Made by a program: the position numbers and the translations under genes. The notes beneath the pieces were generated by a model that saw only the letters and a list, made by a program, of their open reading frames with translations, did not search any database and had not been told where the DNA came from. DNA of 36,448 nucleotides from an uncultured Clostridia bacterium (GTDB taxonomy: Bacteria > Bacillota > Dehalobacteriia > UBA4068 > JAAVYR01): contig CAMNVD010000003.1 of assembly GCA_946562005.1 (NCBI GenBank), positions 1 through 36,448 on the forward strand. The letters run 5' to 3'. Of this stretch, positions 2,048-32,589 are shown in pieces; positions within the stretch are counted from its first letter, which is position 1, and every line of letters starts with the position of its first letter.

Positions 2048-2437
2048 ATGAACAAAGAAACATTGCAGCAGTATATCTATTTAGAAAATAAAATCAACGC
2101 TTTGCAGGAGCAAAAAGAAATGATGCAAAAGACGTTCCTGAGTGTAAAACAGCCTGACGGTATGCCCCATGGTAGTGGCATCAGTGATATGGTGGGAAAG
2201 ACCGTTTGTAAAATAGATGCGTTAGAACAGAAAATCAATGAAAAGATTGATGAACTACTGGTTTTGAAAAGTGAGATACAGTTGTTTGTTATGGAGTTGC
2301 CTTCCCCTTACTATGAAATCATGTGGAAGCGTTATATTGAGGGAAAAAGTTGTAAGGTGGTGGCAAATGAAATGGGTTATAGTGAGAGATGGTTTTATGA
2401 AAAACAAAGCGAAATCATGCGGAAGATTGCAGTCTAG
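2048..2437 (+). CDS. ArpU/RinA-like late-gene transcriptional activator
   Basis: Coiled-coil N-terminus and C-terminal sigma-region-4-like HTH (RYIEGKSCKVVANEMGYSERW); lies just before the tail operon; ATG 2048 follows a GAGGTG RBS. Confidence 0.8.
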   Translation: MNKETLQQYIYLENKINALQEQKEMMQKTFLSVKQPDGMPHGSGISDMVGKTVCKIDALEQKINEKIDELLVLKSEIQLFVMELPSPYYEIMWKRYIEGKSCKVVANEMGYSERWFYEKQSEIMRKIAV

Positions 2438-15382: not shown

Positions 15383-15411
15383 TTGACACCATTACCATGA
15401 AAGCTTATAAT
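15383..15411 (+). promoter_or_regulatory. Consensus sigmaA promoter for trpB2
   Basis: TTGACA-17bp-TATAAT. Confidence 0.85.
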
Positions 15412-15419
15412 GCAACTAA

Positions 15420-15706
15420 ACCAGAGAGAAAGTGTAAGTAGGCAAAGCAGGTACCTTACAGAGAGCCGCCGGCGGTGTGAGTGTGGCAGGGAGTGTTTCG
15501 CTGAATGGGCTTTTGAGGGCAATCCGAAATGGATGATAACATCATCTGTCAGTAGGTGCGACGGAGGGGCACTCCGTTATCAAGACCGGCGTATGTATGT
15601 ACGCGCAGAGGTGGACGCAAAAGATGATGCGTCAAGCCGGGTGGTACCGCAGAAGTGTATGTTAACGCTTTTGTCCCAGCATTTTATGGGGCAAAAGCGT
15701 TTTTTT
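15420..15706 (+). ncRNA. T-box riboswitch (Trp specifier)
   Basis: AGAGA and GGTGTGA stem I motifs, specifier GAA-TGG at 15506-15508, T-box AAGCCGGGTGGTACCGC at 15634-15650, terminator 15664-15706. Confidence 0.9.
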
Positions 15707-15763
15707 ATATTCTTTTCTCTATTTTGTCCCTTGAGAAAATATGAAACAAAGGAGAGACTGCAC

Positions 15764-17137
15764 ATGACAGAAAAGAAAATCCCTTATAAAATCTATCTAA
15801 CAGAAGAGGAAATGCCCAAACAATGGTATAATCTCCGGGCTGATATGCCTACCAAACCGGCGCCGCTTTTAAATCCTGCTACCTTAGAACCAATGACTGC
15901 CGCAGAGTTAGAAGGCGTATTCTGTAAAGAGTTAGTACGGCAAGAACTGGATAATGATACCCCTTATTTTGATATTCCTACGGAAATCCGTGATTTCTAT
16001 AAAATGTATCGTCCAGCGCCGCTGGTGCGGGCTTATTGCTTAGAGGAAAAACTGCAAACACCGGCAAAAATTTATTATAAATTTGAAGGCAACAACACTT
16101 CCGGTTCTCATAAGCTGAACTCTGCCATTGCTCAGGCTTATTATGCCAAGGCCCAGGGGCTCAAAGGGGTAACGACGGAAACCGGCGCCGGACAATGGGG
16201 AACGGCGCTTTCTATGGCTTGCGGTTACCTAGGTCTGGACTGCAAGGTATTTATGGTGAAATGCTCCTATGAACAAAAGCCATTCCGCCGTGAAGTCATG
16301 CGGGTACACGGTGCATCCGTGGTGCCATCTCCTTCAGAAAGCACAGAGGTAGGCCGGAAAATCTTAGCGGAGTTTCCCGGGACCACTGGTTCTCTGGGGT
16401 GCGCTATTAGTGAAGCAGTAGAAGTAGCGGTGAAAACGCCGGGTTATCGTTATGTATTAGGCAGTGTGCTTAATCAGGTATTACTTCATCAATCCATTAT
16501 TGGTCTGGAAGCAAAGCTAGCCCTAGATAAATATGATGTGAAGCCGGATATTATTATTGGCTGTGCTGGGGGCGGCAGCAATTTAGGCGGGCTCATTGCG
16601 CCTTTTATGGGGGAAAAATTAAGGGGCGAGGCAGATTATCGTTTCATTGTAGTAGAGCCGGCTTCCTGTCCATCCTTTACTCGTGGGGAATATCGCTATG
16701 ATTTCTGCGACACGGGAATGGTTTGTCCTCTTGCTAAAATGTATACTCTGGGTAGTAGCTTTATGCCGTCTGCCGACCATGCAGGGGGCTTACGTTTCCA
16801 CGGCATGAGTAGCACATTAAGTCAGCTTTATGCGGACGGCTATATGGAGGCTACTTCTGTCTGCCAAACAGAGGTGTTCCAAGCGGCGGAAGAATTTGCT
16901 CGGGTAGAGGGCATCCTGCCGGCGCCGGAATCTAGCCATGCCATCCTTGCAGCTATCAATGAAGCGAAGAAATGTAAAGAAACCGGTGAGGAAAAAACCA
17001 TTCTCTTTGGCCTGACGGGGACTGGTTACTTTGATTTTTTTGCTTATGAAAAATTCCATGATGGTGAAATGAAAAACTATATTCCTACCGATGAAGAAAT
17101 CGCAGCTTCGCTAGGAAAGCTACCAAAAGTAGAATAA
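15764..17137 (+). CDS. trpB2: TrpB-like PLP enzyme (tryptophan synthase beta chain 2)
   Basis: SGSHKLN PLP lysine, TETGAGQWG, GGGSN and PAPESSHA motifs; AAGGAG RBS before ATG 15764. Confidence 0.95.
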   Translation: MTEKKIPYKIYLTEEEMPKQWYNLRADMPTKPAPLLNPATLEPMTAAELEGVFCKELVRQELDNDTPYFDIPTEIRDFYKMYRPAPLVRAYCLEEKLQTPAKIYYKFEGNNTSGSHKLNSAIAQAYYAKAQGLKGVTTETGAGQWGTALSMACGYLGLDCKVFMVKCSYEQKPFRREVMRVHGASVVPSPSESTEVGRKILAEFPGTTGSLGCAISEAVEVAVKTPGYRYVLGSVLNQVLLHQSIIGLEAKLALDKYDVKPDIIIGCAGGGSNLGGLIAPFMGEKLRGEADYRFIVVEPASCPSFTRGEYRYDFCDTGMVCPLAKMYTLGSSFMPSADHAGGLRFHGMSSTLSQLYADGYMEATSVCQTEVFQAAEEFARVEGILPAPESSHAILAAINEAKKCKETGEEKTILFGLTGTGYFDFFAYEKFHDGEMKNYIPTDEEIAASLGKLPKVE

Positions 17138-17299: not shown

Positions 17300-18301
17300 C
17301 TAAATTGAAATCAGTTCAACGGTTGCCCGTAGTTCTTCTATTGTCTTGTGGTTATATACCCGGTTGCCCGTATCTTTGGAAGTATGCCCCATAAGTAAAT
17401 CAATGCAGCGGCGATTTCCCCCAGCAGCATCAAGCAAGGTTTCAAAGGTGTGGCGGCACTCATGCGGGGTGTGCTGCATTTCCAGCTTCCCCATGATTTC
17501 AGCCCATATTGCCCGGTAAGCGGTGGTTGAAATTGGCTTGCCATTTTGGGAGATCAGCCGGGGCGGGTTGCTGGCAAGGCGGGCTTCTATAAATCCCTTG
17601 ATTTTGGGGTGTATGGGAACAATGCGCCCTTTTCCGGCTTTCGTCTTTGTGCCGCCCTTCATAGTTCCGGCTTCAAGGTCAATATCTTCCGGGCGTAACG
17701 CCAACAGTTCAGAGATACGCCAACCGGAATATATGAAGATAAGCACGGTATCAATCCATTCTTCCACTTGGTGTTTCCATAACCGGGCAATTTCTTCATT
17801 GGTGAACGGTAGGCGGCTTGTGGGCGGGATAGGTTCAGAAGAAAGCAGATCAGAATAACGGCAGGACGATATATCCAGTTCAAGGGCGAATTTATCTAAA
17901 TGCCCCCAAAGGTTTTTGATTGCGCCTTGCGTGGAATAGCCCTTGCCGCAACTATCAATAATATCTTGCATATGATAGGCTTTGATTTGTCTGTATGGCA
18001 TACTGCTTAATGGGGCGCAGTATTTGAAGGCTGATTTCAGGGAACTTTGGTTTGACTTACCCAATTTTGGGGCTTTCTTCTCTTGCCAAAGGTCAAACAA
18101 TTCTTGCAGCGTGATTTTCACCTTGTCAATATCCCACGGGTTGGCGTTGTACGCCGCCAACATTGCAAGCCCTTCTTCCCGGCTTGCCGCATAGCCGATA
18201 ATGGCACAACCCCCGCCTTCGTCTGTTTTCCGCACGATATACGGGCGGCGGCGTTTTCCTGATAGTTTGCTGATTGATCCGTATTTGTTGGGTAGCTTCA
18301 T
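17300..18301 (-). CDS. int: Tyrosine integrase
   Basis: MKLPNKYGSI arm-binding N-terminus; catalytic R (GWRISE), HECRH, LMGH, Y (VYNH); AGAAAGGA RBS before ATG 18301. Confidence 0.95.
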   Translation of the reverse strand: MKLPNKYGSISKLSGKRRRPYIVRKTDEGGGCAIIGYAASREEGLAMLAAYNANPWDIDKVKITLQELFDLWQEKKAPKLGKSNQSSLKSAFKYCAPLSSMPYRQIKAYHMQDIIDSCGKGYSTQGAIKNLWGHLDKFALELDISSCRYSDLLSSEPIPPTSRLPFTNEEIARLWKHQVEEWIDTVLIFIYSGWRISELLALRPEDIDLEAGTMKGGTKTKAGKGRIVPIHPKIKGFIEARLASNPPRLISQNGKPISTTAYRAIWAEIMGKLEMQHTPHECRHTFETLLDAAGGNRRCIDLLMGHTSKDTGNRVYNHKTIEELRATVELISI

Positions 18302-18315
18302 TGTACCGTCCTTTC

Positions 18316-18434
18316 TTGACTTCTGAACCAAAGAACGGTATAATAACAATAGCCATTCAATGATTCTTTGATCGGGTTCGTTGTTTGGTGCTTCGGAAAT
18401 CCTCTGGTATTGCAGTACCGGGGGATTTTCTTTT
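18316..18434 (+). ncRNA. Putative antisense sRNA to the integrase leader
   Basis: TTGACT-17bp-TATAAT at 18316-18344, then ~85 nt ending in hairpin GAAATCCTCTGGTA...TACCGGGGGATTTTC plus T-tract. Confidence 0.5.
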
Positions 18435-18510
18435 ACCTGAATACTCCCCGCTATCACTTGCAGATGATTAGCGGGCGTTTAAGCCGTTGCCCTTTGCAGA
18501 GGGTGGCGGC

Positions 18511-18975
18511 TTATTTCTTTTTCTGTTGTTCTAAAACTTTCTTGTAAAACCTTCCTTCAATCGCTTCTTTTGCCCCAGCTTGCAGTTCTTCAAATTCTGA
18601 TTGTGTAAATTTCGCCTGGTGTCCATCTTTTCCCAATTCAGCAGTATAACTTTCGCCTTCTTCATTTTCTGGTGTAAAGTCAACGGAAAAGCCCATTTCT
18701 TTCAAATAAGCTGTTACCGCCCCAAAGCGTGCTACATTTTCGCCCATATCAGGATATTGCTTATCAAATTCTTCCCAAATGGAAGTATCAGCTAAATCCC
18801 GCAAGTGAACGCCCAAAGCCTTAGCAATTTTGATTAGTATATCTTGCTTAGGTTCACGCTGTTCCTTTTCATATCGCATGATGGCAACACCTGATAAACC
18901 AACCATATATCCTAATTCCTCTTGCGTGTATCCTTTTTCTTTTCTGAAATGCTTGATATTTTCGCCTACGGTCAT
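18511..18975 (-). CDS. XRE-family master repressor (Stl/ImmR-like)
   Basis: HTH (TQEELGYMVGLSGVAIMRYEKEQREP); GAAGGTG RBS before ATG 18975; same strand as int. Confidence 0.88.
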   Translation of the reverse strand: MTVGENIKHFRKEKGYTQEELGYMVGLSGVAIMRYEKEQREPKQDILIKIAKALGVHLRDLADTSIWEEFDKQYPDMGENVARFGAVTAYLKEMGFSVDFTPENEEGESYTAELGKDGHQAKFTQSEFEELQAGAKEAIEGRFYKKVLEQQKKK

Positions 18976-19002
18976 AAATTCACCTTCTTTCAAATTACCA
19001 AT

Positions 19003-19101
19003 AGTATATACTAAAACAACCAAAATGTCAAATTGTTTTTGAAAACCCCTTGACAATCAACCAAAATGTCAGTATAATATAGAAAAACAACCGAAACGGT
19101 A
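19003..19101. promoter_or_regulatory. Divergent promoters with repressor operators
   Basis: Rightward TTGACA(19050)-17-TATAAT(19073); leftward TTGACA(19031)-17-TATACT(19008); CAACCAAAATGTCA at 19017 and 19058, variant CAACCGAAACGGTA at 19088. Confidence 0.8.
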
Positions 19102-19135
19102 GTTTTCCAGCGGGAGTAGAAAGGCGGTAGCAGAT

Positions 19136-19810
19136 ATGAAAGAAACAAGTTTGAAACCCGTGATTGAAAAACTTGAAAATTTATTTTCAAAGTTCAATGA
19201 AAAGTTCTATAACGGTGAACTTCAAGCCCCCGTTATCACGGTAAGCCCGGACACAACAAAAGGTGCTTATGGGTGGTGTACCGCTTGGAAGGCGTGGAGC
19301 GTTGGCGAACAGAAAAAAGTTGCTGACCTTGCAACCCTGACAAAAGAAGCCCTTGAAGCAATGAAGAAAGATGATGGCTTCTATGAAATCAATATTTGTG
19401 CGGAACACCTTGCAAGACCTTTTGAACAGGTTGCGGAAACCCTCTTACATGAAATGGTTCACCTTTACAATCTGCAAATTGGGGTTCAGGACACAAGCAG
19501 GGGCGGCACATACCACAATAAGAAATACAAAGAAGCGGCTGAACAGCACGGCTTGACGGTTGAAAAGGATGCAAAATACGGCTGGACTAAAACAAGCCTG
19601 AATGATGAAGCAAAAGCCTTTGTTGCCGGGATGCAGGATAAGAAGTTTGAACTTCACAGAAAGAGCCTTCCGAAAATCCCCGGTGCAGCTAAAACAAAGC
19701 AGAGTTCCCGGAAATATGTTTGCCCCGTGTGCGGGTGCATTATCAGGGCAACAAAGGAAGTTCATGTTATATGCGGCGATTGCAATGTAGAGTTTGAGGA
19801 AGAAGCCTAA
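19136..19810 (+). CDS. SprT-like zinc metalloprotease with C-terminal Zn ribbon
   Basis: TLLHEMVH (HExxH), YHNKKYK, CPVC...CGDC. Confidence 0.85.
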   Translation: MKETSLKPVIEKLENLFSKFNEKFYNGELQAPVITVSPDTTKGAYGWCTAWKAWSVGEQKKVADLATLTKEALEAMKKDDGFYEINICAEHLARPFEQVAETLLHEMVHLYNLQIGVQDTSRGGTYHNKKYKEAAEQHGLTVEKDAKYGWTKTSLNDEAKAFVAGMQDKKFELHRKSLPKIPGAAKTKQSSRKYVCPVCGCIIRATKEVHVICGDCNVEFEEEA

Positions 19811-19846
19811 ACAGCTTCTTCCCCACCCAAAGAAAGGAAGCTGACT

Positions 19847-20008
19847 ATGAAGCGAATGAAAAGAAAAACCGTTTGGGCGTATTTAGACGGAAAGAAACTT
19901 GTTGATGTAGTGAAAGCAGCCCTTGATAATAATATGATGGTTGACGATATGAAAGCCATTCTGATTAAAGAAAATCCGGGGCATGAAGTAACTTTCAAAT
20001 GTGAATAG
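19847..20008 (+). CDS. Small hypothetical protein (53 aa, not in ORF track)
   Basis: GAAAGGAAG RBS; MKRMKRKTVWAYLDGKKLVDVVKAALDNNMMVDDMKAILIKENPGHEVTFKCE. Confidence 0.7.
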   Translation: MKRMKRKTVWAYLDGKKLVDVVKAALDNNMMVDDMKAILIKENPGHEVTFKCE

Positions 20009-20067
20009 CCCACCTGATGATGGCAAAGTTGGTTACTTGCCGAAATCCCCAATATGGGGATCGTGGG
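20009..20067 (+). ncRNA. Type I hammerhead ribozyme
   Basis: Stem I CCCAC/GTGGG, CTGATGA core, stem II GGCAA/TTGCC, GAAA, stem III TCCCCA/TGGGGA, AUC cleavage triplet (cut after 20062). Confidence 0.8.
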
Positions 20068-20099
20068 AAACCACAAAATCAAACAAGGAAGGTGATAAT

Positions 20100-20336
20100 G
20101 TGAAAATTGATAACAGTAAGTTGGATGTGTTGTTAGCCCGGCGTTGCATGACGATTGCAGACTTGCGAAAAGAAGCATCTTCACAAACCCTAACAAGAAT
20201 TCGACGGGGTGAAAGTGTAAAACCTATCACAGCCGGAAAAATCGCCCTTGCGTTGGGTGTGGATGTAACTGACATTATCGAAAATACCGCTGCAACGGTT
20301 GATAATGGTAAACAGGGGATTTCCGAAGCAAAATGA
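20100..20336 (+). CDS. Cro-like HTH protein
   Basis: GGAAGGTG RBS before GTG 20100; SSQTLTRIRRGESVKPITAGKIALALGVDVTDII. Confidence 0.75.
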   Translation: MKIDNSKLDVLLARRCMTIADLRKEASSQTLTRIRRGESVKPITAGKIALALGVDVTDIIENTAATVDNGKQGISEAK

Positions 20337-20433
20337 AACAGTTTGAACAATCGGCGGCAATGCTGCAACATTCGCCGCAAAATCAAAATCAGGATGAAGT
20401 TTTAGAAAATATAGGAAAGGGGGGATTGTTAAG

Positions 20434-22425
20434 GTGCTGACTTTAGAAGAAGTTGGAAGAATCATATTCAACAATGAATACTGGAAAGGCGGCAACGGCG
20501 GGAATTTCAAAGCCCCGTACAATAACAATGCCCCAAAGCCATTTGAAGAAGCCAAACAATACCGCTACATTTGCGGTGTAATTCAGGAATTTGTTGTTAT
20601 GGTGGATATTGATGATGAAGCCGCTTTTCAATGCAGATTGAACATTGCAAAAGCATTGAAGCAGCATTGTATTGTTATCAAATCACCAAACAAAGGCGGG
20701 CATTTTTATTGGTTCAATCGTGAGATGCAGCCAATCAAGAACAACAGCGGCAACAAAACGCTTCTGACATTGTACCCGGTAGATTATAAAACCGGAATAC
20801 GGCGAATTGAAAGCACCGGGGAAATTAAGAAAGCGAAGTGTGCAGCTTCCCTTTCAAAAGAAGATGGTTCTTTGCGTGAAATCCTCTATGCAAATATCCG
20901 GGAAGATGGAACGCTGGATGAAGTGCCGTTCTATGATTTGCCGCTGAAATCCGGCGCAAAGCATGAGTTCTTGAACATGGGTGAAGGTGACGGAAGGCAG
21001 GACGGGCTTTTTACTTACATGAACCCAATGAAGGCGGCGGGCTATTCCTATGAACAGTTCAAAGAAATTGCTGAATTGATTGAACAATTTGTGTTTGCCA
21101 TTCCTTTGGGTGATGAATTTGAAAATGCAATCCGGCGTGAAGCGTGGGATTCTGTTGATGCCGTAGATCAGGAACGCTTTTTCAGCAAGGGAAAATTCCT
21201 TCATAACAAGTTCGCTGATTATCTAATGGAGAAATACCATATTCGGAAAATCAACGGCTACATTCATAGCTACCAGAACGGGGTTTATATTCCGGGCTAT
21301 GATGCCATTGAAAAAGCCATGCTGAAAGAGATTTCCAGCTTGACACGGACAAAGCAAAATGAAGTGCTGAATTATATTCGGATTCAGGCAGCGGAAATCC
21401 AAAACAGCAAACCCGAACTAATACCGTTCAAAAATGGTTTGCTTGATATTGAACACACTGAACTATTACCGTTTTCCCCGGATTTGGTTGTCACCAATAT
21501 GATCCCGTGGGAATATCGCCCGGAAGCTGTTTCAGAATTGGTTGATGCAGTGCTTGACCGTCTTTCATGCAGGGATGCTGAAATCCGGGCATTGCTGGAA
21601 GAAGTCGGCGGTATGTGCCTTTATAGGGATAACACCATAGGAGGCGGCAAGGCGGTAATTCTGACCGGGGATAAATCCAACGGCAAAAGCACATTCATTT
21701 CAATGCTGCAAGCTATGCTTGGGGCTGACAATGTTTCAAACCTTGATTTTAAGGAACTGGATGGGAAATTTTCAACGGCTATGCTGTTCGGCAAACTGGC
21801 AAATTTGGGGGATGATATTTCAGACAGCTACAAGGAAGATGTTGCGATTTTTAAGAAGATTGTGACAGGCGAACCGATAAAGGCAGAGGAAAAAGGCAAG
21901 CCGCCCTTCAATTTCAAACCCTATGTGAAGCTGGTGTTTTCAGCAAACAGTATTCCCCGGATCAATGATTCAACGGGTGCAGCCTTGCGACGATTGCTGA
22001 TTATTCCCTTAAACGCAAAGTTTTCCGAAAATGATTCCGGCTATGATCCGCAAATTCGGTTGAAGCTATCACAGAAAGAAGCCGTTGAATATTTCATAGT
22101 GCTTTCGATTCAGGGCTTGCAGCGGGTGTTGACAACAAAGAAGTTCACTATTCCGGTAAAGGTGCAGGATGAAAAGGATTCCTATGAGAAAGAAAACAAC
22201 CCTGTTTTGGCATTCATTGATGAAATCGGTACAGATGAAATTATCAATGAACCTACTGCAAAGGTATATAGCCGCTATTGCGAATTTTGCCTTGCGAATG
22301 GATTTAAGGAAATGAGCAAGCTAACTTTTTCAAAGCGGATCAATCAGGCGTTGGGAACAAAAGTTACAACAGCACATACCGGAACGGGTAAAAATCGAAA
22401 ATCTATAAAAGTATTTTCGTTGTGA
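20434..22425 (+). CDS. Primase-helicase (prim-pol plus P4/D5-like SF3 helicase)
   Basis: VDIDD and KGGHFYW primase motifs; Walker A GDKSNGKS; ANLGDDI, FSAN and RRLLIIP motifs. Confidence 0.92.
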   Translation: MLTLEEVGRIIFNNEYWKGGNGGNFKAPYNNNAPKPFEEAKQYRYICGVIQEFVVMVDIDDEAAFQCRLNIAKALKQHCIVIKSPNKGGHFYWFNREMQPIKNNSGNKTLLTLYPVDYKTGIRRIESTGEIKKAKCAASLSKEDGSLREILYANIREDGTLDEVPFYDLPLKSGAKHEFLNMGEGDGRQDGLFTYMNPMKAAGYSYEQFKEIAELIEQFVFAIPLGDEFENAIRREAWDSVDAVDQERFFSKGKFLHNKFADYLMEKYHIRKINGYIHSYQNGVYIPGYDAIEKAMLKEISSLTRTKQNEVLNYIRIQAAEIQNSKPELIPFKNGLLDIEHTELLPFSPDLVVTNMIPWEYRPEAVSELVDAVLDRLSCRDAEIRALLEEVGGMCLYRDNTIGGGKAVILTGDKSNGKSTFISMLQAMLGADNVSNLDFKELDGKFSTAMLFGKLANLGDDISDSYKEDVAIFKKIVTGEPIKAEEKGKPPFNFKPYVKLVFSANSIPRINDSTGAALRRLLIIPLNAKFSENDSGYDPQIRLKLSQKEAVEYFIVLSIQGLQRVLTTKKFTIPVKVQDEKDSYEKENNPVLAFIDEIGTDEIINEPTAKVYSRYCEFCLANGFKEMSKLTFSKRINQALGTKVTTAHTGTGKNRKSIKVFSL

Positions 22426-22610
22426 TGGCACGATTGCGGCACGATTTGGCACTATTGGCGGCACTGTAAAAAGTAATAGAAGTCAATAATGGCACTGTTG
22501 GCACTGTTACGCAGAACTTCTATATAAGAAAAATGATGTTACTTTTATCATAATTTTTTAGAAATATAAGGATATATATAGAAACGCTTAAACCGTGCCA
22601 ACCATGCCAC
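22426..22610. repeat. Putative replication origin (GGCAC iterons around an AT-rich core)
   Basis: GGCAC at 22427, 22438, 22448, 22460, 22491 and 22500; AT-rich 22520-22590; inverted GTGCCA/ATGCCA at 22595 and 22604. Confidence 0.75.
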
Positions 22611-22619
22611 AAATGAATA

Positions 22620-22637
22620 TTGAAAATTAACTTTCAA
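22620..22637. promoter_or_regulatory. 18-bp palindromic site TTGAAAATTAACTTTCAA (copy 1)
   Basis: Exact copies at 24785 and 30182. Confidence 0.7.
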
Positions 22638-24511: not shown

Positions 24512-24784
24512 ATGAAAGCATTAGACAGGCTTATTATTAAGGCGAAGAAGAAATGCGGTGTTGACCGTTTGGAAGTCGGCTTTATTTCCCCATCTGAAAA
24601 GCAAAAGGGGAAATGGGTTGCAAGGGGTGACATTTGGAACGGTGTACCCGGCAACGGTGTTAGGTCAATTATGTATGGCGAATATGATTCTGTTGAAGAA
24701 GCGGAAAAGGCTTTGAACGAGTTAGCGGAACAATACCCCAATAATAAAGATGTTTTTATATTCATTGAAAATATTCTTGAATAA
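24512..24784 (+). CDS. Hypothetical protein
   Basis: AAGGTG RBS before ATG 24512. Confidence 0.65.
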   Translation: MKALDRLIIKAKKKCGVDRLEVGFISPSEKQKGKWVARGDIWNGVPGNGVRSIMYGEYDSVEEAEKALNELAEQYPNNKDVFIFIENILE

Positions 24785-24802
24785 TTGAAAATTAACTTTC
24801 AA
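24785..24802. promoter_or_regulatory. 18-bp palindromic site (copy 2)
   Basis: TTGAAAATTAACTTTCAA. Confidence 0.7.
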
Positions 24803-25061: not shown

Positions 25062-25259
25062 ATGAGAAAACCAATACCCATTTCCGAAACACTGATTCTT
25101 CAAGAAGAAAAACGCCTTCGGGAACAGGCTGGAAATATTATCGCCGCTAAAGAAATTGGAATCAGTCAACAGAGCATTGATAAAATGATTGCTTGTTTCT
25201 CCATTTCAAAGGCGTATTATGACGATCTGAAAAGGCGGTATGAAGAAAATGGAAAATGA
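25062..25259 (+). CDS. Hypothetical protein
   Basis: GGAG RBS; overlaps the sigma factor start. Confidence 0.6.
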   Translation: MRKPIPISETLILQEEKRLREQAGNIIAAKEIGISQQSIDKMIACFSISKAYYDDLKRRYEENGK

Positions 25260-26214
25260 AGAATTGGTTGAACAAATACAAGCCGGGATTAAGCCAACTG
25301 AAAATATGGAACAGCTTTATTTGCAGAACCGTTCTTTCATTTACCAGCAGGCAAAGAAATATGCCGCTTATGCTGATATGGATGATTTAATGCAGGAAGC
25401 CTATTTTGGACTACATGAAGCCGTGAAGCATTACAAGCCCGATAAAGAAACAAAGTTCCTTACTTATCTTCCCTTCCGGCTGCAAAAGGCGTTTCGCCGT
25501 TATATCGACAATAACGGACATACCAAAAGAATTCCGGTTCATTTGGTTCAACGAATTTCAAAGTATAGGAAATATATTTCTGAACAGGCAAAGCAAGGTG
25601 TTGAACCGTCTGATTTTGAAATATGCCGGGATTTGGAATTGTCTGAACAGCAGCTTAAAGATTTACGGAAGGCAATGCGTGAAGCGGAATGTATCAGCAC
25701 AAGCGATTTTGTACCCGGTTTAGATAATATGACCGTGGAAGAATCCCTTGCCGATCCGCTGGGTATGGAAGAACAAGTGATTGATGAAGTCGCAAGAGAA
25801 CAAGCGGAAAGCCTGATCTGGAAGATTGTTGATGAACTGGAAGAACGGCAAGCAGAAGTGATTGTTGGGCGGTATAAAGAATTGGCTACTTTGAAAGAAA
25901 TCAGCAAGCGGTTGAATCTTTCATATCAGCGTATCAGGCAAATAGAAAAGAAAGCCCTATACATTCTACAAAGCAAGCATGAAATCAGCGATATAGCCGA
26001 AATATACGGTTATATGAACGCTTACCGGGGAACAGGGTATCAGGCTTTCAAGAATGGCGGTTCTTCCGTTGAAAACGCAGCTATCAAGCATATAGAAGGA
26101 GAAGCGAGGATCAAGGCAATGCAGCAGAGAATCAAGCAGCAGAAAACGGAAATTCTAACTACTTTGAATATGGATGAACTATTTTCAAAGGTTCTGAACC
26201 TTGCTTCACAGTAA
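25240..26214 (+). CDS. Sigma-70 family RNA polymerase sigma factor
   Basis: Region 2 DDLMQEAYFGLHEAVKHY...KFLTY, KRIPVHL, region 4 TLKEISKRLNLSYQRIRQIEKKAL. Confidence 0.88.
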   Translation: MKKMENEELVEQIQAGIKPTENMEQLYLQNRSFIYQQAKKYAAYADMDDLMQEAYFGLHEAVKHYKPDKETKFLTYLPFRLQKAFRRYIDNNGHTKRIPVHLVQRISKYRKYISEQAKQGVEPSDFEICRDLELSEQQLKDLRKAMREAECISTSDFVPGLDNMTVEESLADPLGMEEQVIDEVAREQAESLIWKIVDELEERQAEVIVGRYKELATLKEISKRLNLSYQRIRQIEKKALYILQSKHEISDIAEIYGYMNAYRGTGYQAFKNGGSSVENAAIKHIEGEARIKAMQQRIKQQKTEILTTLNMDELFSKVLNLASQ

Positions 26215-26512: not shown

Positions 26513-26940
26513 ATCCCAATATTGAAGTTATTACGCCGGAATTGTGGGCGGTAAACAGTGGCTACATAAAAGCCGGATGGATTCGGGAATTATCGCCTGT
26601 TCCGGGGCTGGAAAGCGTAAACAAATATGCTTCCCTGACAAATGACGGTATTATGATCCTGAAAAAAGAATCAGAGTTTTACCCGATATTGAAACAGCTT
26701 GTACCTAAAATTATGCTGCATACGGATGAAGAATTGCAACTTTGCCACAAGTTGAATCATAAGGCGGTGCTTGATGATTATGAAAAGCTATATTTGAATG
26801 TTATGGAATGGGAAATTGAAAGGCGGCGTGTTCGGGCGGATTATCTGAACCGCTTCCCCCGCCCAACATTGAAAAACAGGATCAGAAAATTATTGCAGAA
26901 GGTAGGTGAAAAATTTGGCTACTATCAGAACAGCGATTGA
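26509..26940 (+). CDS. Hypothetical protein
   Basis: Overlaps both the upstream stop and the TMP start. Confidence 0.65.
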   Translation: MNPNIEVITPELWAVNSGYIKAGWIRELSPVPGLESVNKYASLTNDGIMILKKESEFYPILKQLVPKIMLHTDEELQLCHKLNHKAVLDDYEKLYLNVMEWEIERRRVRADYLNRFPRPTLKNRIRKLLQKVGEKFGYYQNSD

Positions 26941-29500
26941 ACTTTATGATGCGTTTTCTGCACCGCTTATGAATGTAATTCAAGCGGTAAATCAGGGAGT
27001 TTCTGCAATGGAAACCATGCACGCAACCATGAATGAACCTGTTTCCGTGTCGATTGCGGACGGGATTGCAGAGCAAATGAATCAGGCGGTGCAAGCTATT
27101 GAAGAAGCAAGGGCGGCATTGTCTGAACCTGTTACCCATGAAAATACAAGCGTTACTTGGGATAGCCTCACAATGCCAACCTTCACAAATTCCGGGGCTG
27201 ACCGTTTCCAGCAGGAAGTTCAGAGTGCAAACGCCATGTTGGAGCAACTGAACCAGACCCAACGGAATATAGCGGCACAGGCTGAACGGGTGCAACTGTT
27301 CCCTTCAAATATGGTGAATGATATGAATACCATGCAAAGCCGTATTCAAGGCATTCAGGAAAGAATTCAAACCATAGAAAATAACCCCTTGAATTTGGGA
27401 ACAGATCAAGCTAACGCTGAATTGGAGTATTTGCGTAACAATTTGAATCAGGCAGTTCAGACACAGAATGAAATGAACGCTGCAATTCAGAACATGGACA
27501 TTACAACCGCCAATGATGCGTATATCCGGCTTTCAAATACCATTTCAGGAACAGAAAGATATATCCGTGATAATGTTGACGAACAAGGGCGGTTCAACCG
27601 TGAAATTGAAGAAGGCACGAATGAAGCCAATGAACTAATGCAGACAATCAAGGGGGCGGTTGCGGCATACGCTACAATTCAAACCCTTTCAGCGGCGTTG
27701 AACTTATCGGATCAGCTTACTTCCACAACCGCCCGCTTGAATTTGATGAATGACGGGCTGCAAACCACACAGGACTTGCAGAACATGATTTATCTTTCAG
27801 CGGAACGGGCAAGGGGCAGCTATCAGGCAACCGCTGATGCCGTTTCCAAACTTGGACTTATGGCGGGTGATGCGTTCAGCAGTTCGGAAGAAATCATTGC
27901 CTTCATGGAACAGGTGAATAAGCAATTTACCATTGCTGGAACGGAAGCGGCGGGCATTGATGCCGCTATGTTGCAGCTTACACAAGCAATGGGTTCAGGC
28001 GTTCTTCGTGGCGAGGAATACAACAGCATTTTGGAGCAAGCCCCGAATATCATTCAGGCGATTGCTGATTATATGGAAGTTCCAAAGGGGCAATTAAAGG
28101 ATATGGCAGCGGAAGGACTAATCACCGCTGACATTGTAAAGGCGGCTATGTTTGCGGCGGCTGATGATACCAATGCAAAGTTTGAACAGATGCCGAAAAC
28201 CTTTTCGCAAATTTGGACTTCTTTTCAGAATACCGCTTTGATGGCATTTCAGCCCGTTCTTCAAAGAATGAATGAAATTGCCAATAGTGAAGCGTTTCAG
28301 GGCTTTGTGAACAATGCGATTGAAGCCCTATCAATGGTGGCGGGCATTGCCCTTGAAATCTTTGATTTGCTTGTGGGCGTTGCTGAAATCGTTGGTGAAA
28401 ATTGGTCGTGGCTATCCCCTATCATTTACGGTGTAGCCGGGGCTTTGGCTGTTTACTACGGCTGGTTGCTGTTGACAAAAGGGGCAGCGTTAGCAACCGC
28501 AGCGGCACAAGGTGCATTGACACTTGCTAAAATGCTTGCCGTTCCTGTTTACGCCGCTTTAACGGGTGCGACAATGGCAGATACGGCGGCACAATGGGGG
28601 CTGAATTCTGCAATGTACGCTTGCCCTATCGTGTGGATCATTATTCTTATAATCGCCCTGATAGCCCTATTCTATGCGGCGGTGGCGGCGGTGAATAAAT
28701 TCGCCGGAACTTCCGTTTCCGCAACGGGTATAATTTGCGGGGCGTTCATGGTTGCCCTTGCCTTTATCGGCAATATCTTTGTTGCCCTTTGGAATTTGGT
28801 TGTGGATGTGTTCGTGCTTATCTATAACCTTGTGGCAACCGTGGCAAACTTTATCGGCAATGTATTCACCGATCCTATCGGTGCGGTTTGTCGATTGTTC
28901 TTTGATTTGGCTGATACCGTGCTTGGAATTCTTCAAGCGTTGGCTTCGGCTATTGATGCAATCTTCGGTTCAAACCTTGCGGGAAGTGTTCAGGGTTGGC
29001 GTGATTCTCTTGGCGGTTGGGTTGATGAAACCTTCGGTAAGGGTGATGAAGTAATGGCAAAAATGAACGCTGACGATATGAAACTTGGGCGGTTTGAATA
29101 CGGGGCAGCTTGGGATGCCGGGTATTCCTTTGGTGAAGGCATTGATGAAAGCATTGCGAATTTCGATCCTTCCAGCCTGTTTGATACCAATGTACCGGGT
29201 GCGGGTGACTACGCCGATTTGAGCAATTACGGGGCGGGGCTTGCCGGGGATGTTGGCGATATAGCGGGCAACACCGGGGCAATCAAGGATTCAATGGATA
29301 TTACAGAAGAAGATTTGAAATATCTTCGTGACATTGCCGAACAGGAAGCGATAAACAGATTTACAACCGCTGAAATCAATATAGAAGCACCAATAACCAA
29401 CCAAATTTCTAAAGATGTTGATTTGGATGGAGTAGTTGACGGGCTGACGGGTGCAGTAAATGAAGCGGCTGACATTATAGCGGAAGGCGTACACATTTAG
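26915..29500 (+). CDS. Stand-alone tape measure protein (~861 aa) carried by the satellite
   Basis: Tape-measure core (SAERARGSY...QLTQAMGSGVLRGEEYNSILEQAP), hydrophobic segments, C-terminal RDIAEQEAINRFTTAE...AEGVHI; AGGTG RBS before TTG 26915. Confidence 0.92.
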   Translation: MATIRTAIELYDAFSAPLMNVIQAVNQGVSAMETMHATMNEPVSVSIADGIAEQMNQAVQAIEEARAALSEPVTHENTSVTWDSLTMPTFTNSGADRFQQEVQSANAMLEQLNQTQRNIAAQAERVQLFPSNMVNDMNTMQSRIQGIQERIQTIENNPLNLGTDQANAELEYLRNNLNQAVQTQNEMNAAIQNMDITTANDAYIRLSNTISGTERYIRDNVDEQGRFNREIEEGTNEANELMQTIKGAVAAYATIQTLSAALNLSDQLTSTTARLNLMNDGLQTTQDLQNMIYLSAERARGSYQATADAVSKLGLMAGDAFSSSEEIIAFMEQVNKQFTIAGTEAAGIDAAMLQLTQAMGSGVLRGEEYNSILEQAPNIIQAIADYMEVPKGQLKDMAAEGLITADIVKAAMFAAADDTNAKFEQMPKTFSQIWTSFQNTALMAFQPVLQRMNEIANSEAFQGFVNNAIEALSMVAGIALEIFDLLVGVAEIVGENWSWLSPIIYGVAGALAVYYGWLLLTKGAALATAAAQGALTLAKMLAVPVYAALTGATMADTAAQWGLNSAMYACPIVWIIILIIALIALFYAAVAAVNKFAGTSVSATGIICGAFMVALAFIGNIFVALWNLVVDVFVLIYNLVATVANFIGNVFTDPIGAVCRLFFDLADTVLGILQALASAIDAIFGSNLAGSVQGWRDSLGGWVDETFGKGDEVMAKMNADDMKLGRFEYGAAWDAGYSFGEGIDESIANFDPSSLFDTNVPGAGDYADLSNYGAGLAGDVGDIAGNTGAIKDSMDITEEDLKYLRDIAEQEAINRFTTAEINIEAPITNQISKDVDLDGVVDGLTGAVNEAADIIAEGVHI

Positions 29501-29506
29501 CCCCAC

Positions 29507-29540
29507 GATCCCCCGGTGAAATATCCGGGGGATTTTTCTT
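29507..29540 (+). terminator. Intrinsic terminator after the satellite TMP
   Basis: ATCCCCCGG-TGAAATAT-CCGGGGGAT-TTTTCTTT. Confidence 0.8.
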
Positions 29541-29543
29541 TAC

Positions 29544-29572
29544 TTGACTATTCGTTACCAATAGTATATAAT
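29544..29572 (+). promoter_or_regulatory. sigmaA promoter of the AbrB-like gene
   Basis: TTGACT-17bp-TATAAT; contains TTACCAATAGTATATA, also found at 18995-19010. Confidence 0.75.
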
Positions 29573-29613
29573 AAATTCAAAGTAATTGAACACATTTCAA
29601 AGGGGGTGTAAGT

Positions 29614-30177
29614 ATGGAAACACGAAAGGGAAATATGATTTTTGGGAAAGCTGGCGGTAATGCAAGCCGGAATTCTTATACTTGTAAAGTATCTGTTCCC
29701 AAAACATGGGTTGACCGAATGGGGCTAACCCATGAACAGCGGGAAATAGAACTTGCCTTTGATGGAGATAGGATCACGATTGATAGACCGGAACACAGCC
29801 CGGTAAAACATACCCCATTAGCAAGCAATCAGAAAATCCGGCGTTTTGCCTTGCTTTGGATGCAGATGTATAAAAACCACGCTTCCACACCCGGCTTCTA
29901 TTTTGAAGATGTTTCCTTTGTTGGTGAAGGGCTTGCAGATTTAGGCTTTGAAATGGATTGTGGGGAATCCTTCAAGGCAGCTTTCCCAAACTGTAATTTA
30001 GGCGATTGCGAAGCGTGGAAACGGATTGTGAATCAGATTGACAGTGTGCAGCTTTTGGGGGATGCGATTTTCTCACAATGGCGGTACTGGAATCATTGGA
30101 GTAATGCACCAATGGAAGAAGCTGATTTTGAATGGTTTGCGCTTGCCTTTTCCCGGCTGGCTGAACTGGCGGCATGA
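29614..30177 (+). CDS. AbrB/MazE-like DNA-binding domain fused to an unknown domain
   Basis: KVSVPKTWVDRMGLTHEQREIELAFDGDRITID swapped-hairpin pattern; Trp-rich C-terminal domain. Confidence 0.7.
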   Translation: METRKGNMIFGKAGGNASRNSYTCKVSVPKTWVDRMGLTHEQREIELAFDGDRITIDRPEHSPVKHTPLASNQKIRRFALLWMQMYKNHASTPGFYFEDVSFVGEGLADLGFEMDCGESFKAAFPNCNLGDCEAWKRIVNQIDSVQLLGDAIFSQWRYWNHWSNAPMEEADFEWFALAFSRLAELAA

Positions 30178-30181
30178 TGTT

Positions 30182-30199
30182 TTGAAAATTAACTTTCAA
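30182..30199. promoter_or_regulatory. 18-bp palindromic site (copy 3)
   Basis: TTGAAAATTAACTTTCAA. Confidence 0.7.
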
Positions 30200-32319: not shown

Positions 32320-32524
32320 TGACTCGGGGTCTGTTGGGCAGGCGTCAAGGCGGACAGATGTCGGGATGAGGGAATCCGGTGAGAATCCGGAGCAATACCC
32401 GTTGCCGTATGTGCAGGAGTTTGCAGTTCGTGGCGTGAGCCGGTCATTGAGGGGAAACTTTTGAGAAGGCGGAGCTGTAAGCGTTGGGATTTTTTCTTGA
32501 AACTGTACGAGCCGGAAGACCTAT
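32320..32524 (+). ncRNA. Cobalamin (B12) riboswitch
   Basis: AGGGAATCCGGTGAGAATCCGGAGC...GCCGTA, CATTG...GAAGG, B12 box GAGCCGGAAGACCT at 32509-32522. Confidence 0.88.
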
Positions 32525-32589
32525 GATGTTTATAGGCTTGTTTTGGTGCGTCCAAAATTAGCGAGAAAATGTGTTCCGCAGAAAAGTTC

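Follow-up and report, generated by a model that had tools for sequence, protein, structure and literature searches.

We found that positions 20009-20073 (+ strand) of the window, by which we mean the whole 36,448-nt stretch of DNA analysed here, hold a pseudoknot-stabilised type I hammerhead ribozyme, a member of a large phage and prophage intergenic class. The ribozyme lies in the predicted early operon of a mobile element, downstream of a SprT-like metalloprotease-domain gene and a small ORF (orf53), and upstream of a Cro-like gene and a primase gene. Our main reading, to which we give a probability of about 0.75, is that constitutive co-transcriptional self-cleavage separates the sprT-orf53 message from the cro-primase message. 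Ribozymes of this kind have been known in prophages since 2011, and the copy described here is a clean but ordinary example.

Anatomy of the ribozyme

The positions of the ribozyme, its parts and the surrounding genes are collected in Table 1. All positions that define the hammerhead core in the text of PMC3088659 (C3 U4 G5 A6 N7 G8 A9, G12 A13 A14, the A15.1-U16.1 pair and H17) are present at 20009-20067. The extra U20021 follows A9 and falls outside the consensus core positions listed there. The three helices adjoin the core directly, as is required of a hammerhead at 1.1-2.1, 10.1-11.1 and 15.1-16.1; the corresponding pairs are C13-G63, G22-C41 and A45-U61 (here and below, last two digits of the position). 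Stem II is formed by G22-C41, G23-C40, C24-G39, A25-U38, A26-U37 and G28-C36, with A27 bulged. The predicted cut would leave a 2',3'-cyclic phosphate on C20062 and a 5'-OH on G20063.

The minimum free energy fold of 19995-20080 gave the same three-way junction (z -2.77). The complementary strand folds comparably, as complements do, but without the hammerhead core. The same fold extended stem I outward by pairing UGUG 20000-03 with CACA 20072-75. We rejected this extension, which is unconserved in the relatives and clashes with the covarying pseudoknot described below.

The earlier note on this DNA had described a complete hammerhead of type I that carries an extra U, beginning at the base directly after the stop codon of orf53 and cutting about 37 nt upstream of the Cro-like gene. 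Our reading of the sequence, the covariation in the family and a covariance model built without the window all bear this description out. The TAG stop occupies 20006-08 and stem I starts at 20009, and the distance of about 37 nt is that from the scissile bond (20062|20063) to the GTG at 20100. We are nearly certain that 20009-20067 belongs to the hammerhead class.

Table 1. Features of the ribozyme and of the mobile element that carries it, in window positions
Feature	Position	Strand	Evidence or detail
Tyrosine integrase, left end of the element	17300-18457	-	Pfam Phage_integrase, E 3.4e-17
cI-like HTH repressor	18511-18975	-	Pfam HTH_3, E 2e-13; listed ORF extends to 19056
Leftward promoter-like site	19031-19003	-	11/12 consensus matches
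Rightward early promoter-like site, TTGACA-17-TATAAT	19050-19078	+	12/12 consensus matches; sequence match alone
SprT-like metalloprotease-domain gene	19136-19810	+	Pfam SprT-like, E 3.2e-7; phrog_6361, E 3.8e-48
orf53 (53 aa)	19847-20008	+	ORF list; TAG stop 20006-08 adjoins the ribozyme
Type I hammerhead ribozyme	20009-20067	+	Sequence, fold, descriptor, model R1
Stem I, CCCAC with GUGGG	20009-13 with 20063-67	+	Sequence
Core CUGAUGA	20014-20	+	Sequence
Extra unpaired U, between core and stem II	20021	+	Sequence
Stem II	20022-41	+	Five pairs, bulged A27, closing G28-C36
Loop II, UUGGUUA	20029-35	+	Sequence
Pseudoknot 5' strand UGGUU, in loop II	20030-34	+	Complementary to 20069-73; family covariation
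GAAA	20042-45	+	Sequence
Stem III	20045-61	+	A45-U61, U46-A60 and four C-G pairs (47-50 with 56-59); loop AAUAU
C17, unpaired	20062	+	Triplet before the cut AUC
Predicted self-cleavage site	20062-20063	+	Hammerhead consensus H17|N1.1; position inferred
Possible 5'-terminal hairpin of the 3' product, GUGG 20063-66, GAAA loop, CCAC 20071-74	20063-20074	+	Centroid fold
Pseudoknot 3' strand AACCA, one base past stem I	20069-73	+	Complementarity; columns of alignment A2
Shine-Dalgarno-like AAGGAAGGUGA of the Cro-like gene	20085-95	+	Sequence; unpaired in the 3' product fold
Cro-like HTH gene, GTG start	20100-20336	+	Pfam HTH_26, E 8.2e-7
D5-type primase/helicase	20434-22425	+	Pfam DUF5906, D5_N, Pox_D5; phrog_864, E 1e-144
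Sigma factor gene	25240-26214	+	ORF domain/family search
Tape-measure gene	26906-29500	+	TMP_3, E 2.7e-43

Covariation and a covariance model

Relatives were collected from viral contigs with a scan pattern derived from the window's own core (core, extra U, first three stem II pairs, GAAA and ATC), which gave at least 119 loci. Of the 119 loci listed, 80 contain a full type I hammerhead when a descriptor requires 3 or more contiguous pairs per stem; the other 39 could be accidental hits to the pattern, or hammerheads whose stems have bulges. Among the matches listed there are at least 57 unique hammerheads with the extra U and, as by-catch from the same loci, at least 11 without it. The AUC triplet is a minority form among these matches, most of which have GUC. 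U-bearing and U-less copies on one viral contig (L035/L036) have an identical stem I.

Alignment A1 comprised 36 of the at least 57 U-bearing hammerheads. The window was excluded, as were L012, a cultured isolate described below, and L048, which is nearly identical to the window. Ten forms with a long stem III (L020, L023, L034, L061, L082, L077, L115, L132, L067 and L078) and ten of irregular length (L028, L038, L079, L043, L045, L081, L085, L095, L116 and L117) were also omitted. In A1, 93.7% of the cells of the hammerhead pairs are paired, a percentage inflated because the rows were pre-selected for pairing, compared with 33-43% when the partners are slid. Compensatory change on both sides was found in 17 of the 20 pairs. 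Covariation among homologues, whose absence the earlier note had named as evidence against its reading, is thus present.

A covariance model (R1) was built from A1, without the window. It matched 20009-20067 over all 57 model positions with 58.4 bits (E 3.3e-17), part of which, like the stem statistics, is not fully independent, since the rows of A1 and of a second alignment (A2, below) were picked by a descriptor that demands pairing and the window-derived scan pattern fixed the core and three pairs. The runner-up reached 9.9 bits in the window with filters off and 16.3 bits in the genome, where 20009-20067 was the sole significant match.

A pseudoknot between loop II and the 3' flank of stem I

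We also found a 5-bp pseudoknot, absent from the earlier note, between 20030-34 in loop II and 20069-73. Loop II and the 12 bases that follow stem I can form a Watson-Crick run of at least 4 in 63% of the 70 unique members listed, compared with 20% in a control in which loops and flanks were swapped between members. The partners change together, as in UGGAU/AUCCA, UGAUU/AAUCA, UGGC/GCCA, CGGU/ACCG and GGAUA/UAUCC.

In alignment A2, made of the window, L012 and 29 rows of A1 with their 3' flank, 75.5% of the cells in the five pseudoknot columns are paired, a figure that some misaligned rows in this region pull down. For three of the five pairs both partners changed (UA/AU/GC exchanges). The pairing is the stem I/stem II pseudoknot of Perreault et al., which according to the text of that study occurs in all three hammerhead types and is needed for fast cleavage (Perreault 2011, PMC3088659). 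The structure of a pseudoknot hammerhead is treated in PMC11300833.

Chance expectation and Rfam searches

Both strands of the genome (1,232,471 bases) were scanned with a descriptor that required the core, allowed up to one inserted base and demanded four or more contiguous pairs per stem, an A-U closing pair and H17. The only match was the site at 20009-20067. Among 40 simulated genomes of equal size (first-order Markov) there was 1 relaxed match in total, and none reached 5/5/7 pairs. The motif is no chance match.

A search with the Rfam hammerhead models, which the earlier note had proposed as a check, came back empty. Rfam cmscan over the whole window gave no hammerhead and no other ribozyme at gathering, so that the site stays below the threshold of RF00163 (clan CL00010) and of the other hammerhead models. 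No hammerhead was matched at E<=10 in 401 or in 85 bases around the site, nor by RF00163 and RF02276 over the whole genome. We ran two controls, which point to the sensitivity of the models. In 20 related loci rich in hammerheads, Rfam at gathering gave a pistol ribozyme only. In L036, where the descriptor recognises six hammerheads and four have a textbook core, the search at E<=10 gave a single partial Hammerhead_3 match of 19.5 bits. Because the same models miss canonical phage hammerheads, the negative result says little about the site. Current Rfam models do not cover the phage hammerhead class, and such ribozymes therefore stay unannotated.

The operon and the mobile element

The ribozyme fills the gap at 20009-20099 between + strand genes, in sense orientation and 1.5 kb from the integrase. 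This is the context given for prophage hammerheads in the text of Perreault et al. (near an integrase, intergenic and sense; 2011). We found no terminator-like site on the + strand between 19100 and 22400. Since a promoter-like site lies at 19050-78 and no terminator precedes 22400, the ribozyme lies inside one predicted early transcript. The search of Pfam and PHROG gave no family match for orf53. From the sequence, the likely start of the cI-like repressor is ATG 18975, which the leftward promoter-like site precedes. The interval between the primase and sigma factor genes holds small ORFs.

The element may be a phage satellite, the label given to it in the earlier note; satellites are small integrated elements with their own genes for integration, regulation and replication and an incomplete set of virion genes, and are mobilised by a helper phage. 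The element has integrase, cI, Cro and primase genes, and also a tape-measure gene and a sigma factor. A scan of 16 ORFs gave no capsid, portal or terminase, so that the element is incomplete as a phage. No tRNA was found in the window, and none of the direct repeats was a convincing att repeat flanking the element.

We retrieved relatives of the SprT gene from 18 loci among genome contigs. Only L012 among them keeps orf53 together with the ribozyme; other genes follow sprT elsewhere. L012 is the record of a cultured isolate, Acetatifactor muris DSM 23669, and has the same element and the same ribozyme. L048 is also the same element, and in L048 as in L012 orf53 has 98% identity to that of the window. 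The isolate, a mouse-gut commensal, would thus allow RNA ends to be mapped and mutants to be tested. A blastn search of 19136-20440 against phage GenBank records gave no match. R1 had matches at E<=0.001 in 3 of 51 genomes of the same taxonomic order, including the window's own genome, and carriage of the ribozyme in this order is sporadic.

SprT genes 96-100% identical to that of the window occur in four genome contigs (L001, L002, L003 and L012), whose labels belong to different Clostridia families (Pseudoflavonifractor, Peptococcaceae, Ruthenibacterium and Acetatifactor). This reflects either wide movement of the element among gut Clostridia or misplaced contigs in some bins. The window's own genome assembly has 138 contigs and is 87% complete.

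The leader between the ribozyme and the Cro-like gene

The placement of the ribozyme relative to its neighbours recurs in the family. In 47 of the 69 unique members listed, the stop of an upstream ORF with at least 30 open codons lies a few bases from the ribozyme start. In the control for this abutment it was seen in 39 of the 50 evaluable members; after a shift of 60-300 nt, or on the opposite strand, 1-7 of 50 showed it. In 46 of the 69 unique members listed, the 60 nt downstream contain a Shine-Dalgarno-like word with a start codon. The distance from cut to start has a median of 38 nt among the members listed, and it is 37 nt in the window.

The possible hairpin at 20063-20074 is the centroid fold of 20063-20125, in which the Shine-Dalgarno sequence stays open. 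Its downstream strand is a second copy of the 5' strand of stem I, and the hairpin is mutually exclusive with stem I and with the pseudoknot. At least 4 contiguous pairs of such a hairpin can form in 75% of the 69 members listed, compared with 41% for swapped flanks and 39% for shuffled flanks. For the 51 representatives among the matches listed, bases 1-3 have a mean pairing probability of 0.61, compared with 0.41 for shuffled flanks. In 17 of the 51 representatives no more than 5% of their own shuffles did better (Wilcoxon p 7e-6, which is overstated since the representatives are related). Where stem I differs between members, its downstream complement differs to match (GUGG/CCAC, GCGG/CCGC, AUGGG/CCCAU and CGGG/CCCG). 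This signal is confined to a GC-rich branch and is absent in the AT-rich TTAACC branch. The 5' product, for its part, would end one base past the 7-pair stem III hairpin.

Variant contigs depart from the window at two places, at 20004, the 5' edge of the ribozyme, with no ribozyme after it, and at 20110, shortly after the start of cro, with a Cro allele of the L012 type. In L012 and L048, 20110-20265 is replaced, and their Cro is 56% identical to that of the window. From the breaks at 20004 and 20110 it follows that the ribozyme and leader behave as a mosaic unit.

For the GC-rich branch, the window copy included, we propose tentatively that the ribozyme is part of a portable "cut-and-cap" leader cassette. 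Such a cassette would begin at the upstream stop codon, so that the 5' product is translatable to its stop. The first bases after stem I would double as a pseudoknot strand, and the copy of the stem I 5' strand further on would let the new 5'-OH end snap into a terminal hairpin. This hairpin would block religation and the entry of 5' exonucleases (RNase J in Firmicutes), and an open ribosome-binding site would follow at a distance of about 38 nt. Since RNase J1 degrades the 5'-OH product of glmS (PMC3997798), a hairpin at the 5' end of the product would be a sensible feature in a Firmicute. Descriptions of the stop abutment, the leader and the hairpin were not found in the literature searched or in the text of PMC3088659, supplements aside. 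The stop-abutting, hairpin-capping layout, as modelled here, is the one part of our results that may be new. The stop abutment, the fixed leader length and the covarying product hairpin are testable hypotheses for the use of the cut.

Proposed processing of the early transcript and alternative explanations

In the mechanism that we propose, the ribozyme would be made within the rightward early operon, which runs from the promoter near 19050-19078 through sprT, orf53, the ribozyme, cro and the primase gene. The RNA would fold into the three-stem junction, UGGUU in loop II would pair with AACCA directly 3' of stem I, and self-cleavage would occur between C20062 and G20063. The sprT-orf53 message would retain its stop codon, and would close with the hairpins of stems II and III and a terminal cyclic phosphate. 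The cro-primase message would start with a 5'-OH and a 37-nt leader, which may refold into the terminal GUGG/CCAC hairpin and leave the ribosome-binding site behind it open. Decay and translation of one half of the operon would then be independent of the other.

Judged from sequence features, the ribozyme probably cleaves in vivo, and a role in processing the early transcript is the somewhat likelier case. Such a role, which in the earlier note would give the two messages different stability during induction, is the standard hypothesis for prophage hammerheads (PMC3088659, PMC6765202) and fits the anatomy of the predicted operon. In the texts of two reviews, of 2017 and 2019, the function of bacterial and phage self-cleaving ribozymes is called unproven (PMC6155905; Weinberg 2019, PMC6765202). 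The window copy bears on this open role as a clean case of a single ribozyme in a simple operon.

We compared assembled contigs of four public runs over 18400-22600, and no pile-up of starts or ends was listed. The cut site is bridged by contigs from two RNA libraries that belong to a single study (X12 record 4, 19934-20240; X16 record 20, 19900-20110), and contigs of two probable DNA runs also cross it. There must therefore be some uncut RNA, or else DNA, in the two RNA libraries. Because assembled contigs cannot show RNA ends and RNA libraries may contain DNA, the bridging contigs neither show nor exclude cleavage. One contig of run X14 is without an A at 20025, which would remove the bulge of stem II.

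Two alternatives are live. The first, which we consider unlikely, is that the site is a hammerhead by descent but catalytically weak or dead, and acts as a structured spacer that ends or protects the upstream message. It departs from the textbook form in three features, namely U20021, the bulged A27 and the AUC triplet, and each of these could lower the rate of cleavage. The AUC triplet was slow co-transcriptionally in one viroid system and is nearly absent from viroid hammerheads, according to the text of PMC1636495. A weak or dead ribozyme would also agree with the contigs from RNA libraries that span the cut site, and the bulge is not fixed, given the X14 contig. However, the extra U is common to at least 57 unique members that keep all stems by compensatory change, and the pseudoknot, which is relevant only to catalysis, is retained and covaries. 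The essential core positions are all intact. Moreover, natural hammerheads with an additional base between positions 9 and 10.1, where U20021 lies, can be active; examples are the CChMVd (+) hammerhead, where A10 causes a moderate loss of rate, and hammerheads of Penelope-like elements (PMC1636495, PMC4209133).

The second alternative is conditional cleavage, to which we likewise assign a low probability. Here stem I and the core would be masked by a ribosome terminating at 20006-08, or else the 3' strand of stem I would be sequestered by CCAC 20071-74, and the cut would report the translation of orf53 or the kinetics of folding. Consistent with this, stop codon and ribozyme adjoin in the window and in the 39 members counted above, far more often than in the controls, and the competing hairpin, incompatible with both stem I and the pseudoknot, is over-represented among family members. 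But a tight junction between stop and ribozyme is equally expected from space-saving in phage genomes, and it keeps the stop of the upstream ORF on the 5' product. The full-length fold prefers the hammerhead over the alternative hairpin, and no ligand or protein site is evident.

It is highly improbable that the site is a chance match or a coding stretch, in which the frame from GTG 20001 would run open into the Cro-like gene and give a 111-aa ORF: this ORF (20001-20336) is present and Rfam is without a match, but about 0.025 matches are expected per genome even for a looser motif, R1 scores the site far above its runner-up, no Shine-Dalgarno sequence precedes 20001 while a strong one precedes 20100, L131 has the 69-nt ribozyme alone in common with the window (81%) between dissimilar flanks, and a C-to-U change in stem I relative to L012 retains the pairing as G-U.

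Comparison with known self-cleaving ribozymes

Among known systems, the window copy stands close to the prophage hammerheads of Perreault et al. The text of that study reports hundreds of bacterial hammerheads, many near prophage integrases and often several flanking genes; the prophage hammerheads cleave in vitro and were proposed to process long phage transcripts into shorter mRNAs (PMC3088659). The ribozyme of the window has in common with them the core, the stem I-II pseudoknot, the nearby integrase and the intergenic, sense position in a polycistronic unit. It differs in being single in the window and in the genome, whereas several ribozymes flanking a gene are frequent, though not obligatory, in that text. 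The insertions described there are A6a, U13a and one near C3, and a U between A9 and G10.1 is not among them, Dataset S1 and figures aside.

Compared with RF00163 type I hammerheads, the site has the same open stem I, closed stems II and III, core and (as predicted here) cleavage chemistry. It differs in its lack of a match at E<=10 to any Rfam hammerhead model, a lack that extends to canonical phage copies. The CChMVd (+) and Penelope hammerheads resemble it in one unpaired base at the 9/10.1 junction that is natural and compatible with activity (De la Pena & Flores 2001). They belong to a viroid and to eukaryotic retroelements, whereas the base here is a U in a bacterial mobile element.

The leader at 20063-20099 may be seen, as a functional analogy, beside RiboJ, a synthetic insulator made of the sTRSV hammerhead and a hairpin (PMC6206723). 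In both, upstream RNA is, or would be, removed and a hairpin-bearing leader precedes the ribosome-binding site. RiboJ, however, is engineered, is of type III origin and has its hairpin downstream of the ribozyme, whereas here the hairpin would be formed by the 3' strand of stem I itself, with an inferred role. The glmS ribozyme of Firmicutes is comparable in that it cuts itself within the leader of an mRNA; the coding fragment then carries a 5'-OH and has an altered fate (PMC3997798). Unlike the window ribozyme, for which no ligand is evident, it depends on a ligand, and it destabilises its message via RNase J1. In Bacillus subtilis the 5'-OH product of glmS is an entry site for RNase J1 and is degraded from its 5' end (PMC3997798). 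By analogy, the effect of the window cut on stability could run in either direction, given this entry at 5'-OH ends.

Further observations

The viral contig L035/L036 (about 4 kb) has at least 6 hammerheads in about 3 kb, all with stem I CCGC/GCGG, two of them with the extra U and four without. This cluster is of the array type described in the text of Perreault et al. (2011, PMC3088659). In L059 we found a pistol ribozyme at 2312-2379 (- strand; RF02679, 62.6 bits), with two hammerheads a few hundred bases away on the same strand.

In the window, a 19-nt near-palindrome, ATTGAAAATTAACTTTCAA, occurs at 22619-22637, 24784-24802 and 30181-30199, with a weaker copy at 19172-19190; within the element these sites are intergenic. 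The repeat resembles an operator or a promoter sequence through which a regulator or sigma factor encoded by the element would act, and L015 and L017 contain comparable words. The stretch 29525-29575, before an ORF at 29614, repeats the terminator-like 18418-18446 (83%) and a piece of the leftward promoter at 18995-19015 (95%), which hints at a second regulatory module or at a junction of two elements.

Immediately left of the integrase, the ORF at 15410-17137 (+ strand) encodes a PLP-dependent enzyme (Pfam PALP, residues 200-537). Its true start is probably further in, as the listed frame has a long, odd N-terminal extension. To the right, 32330-32540 (+ strand) holds a cobalamin riboswitch aptamer (Rfam RF00174, 50.3 bits, E 7.9e-10), which probably marks host DNA beyond the mobile element.
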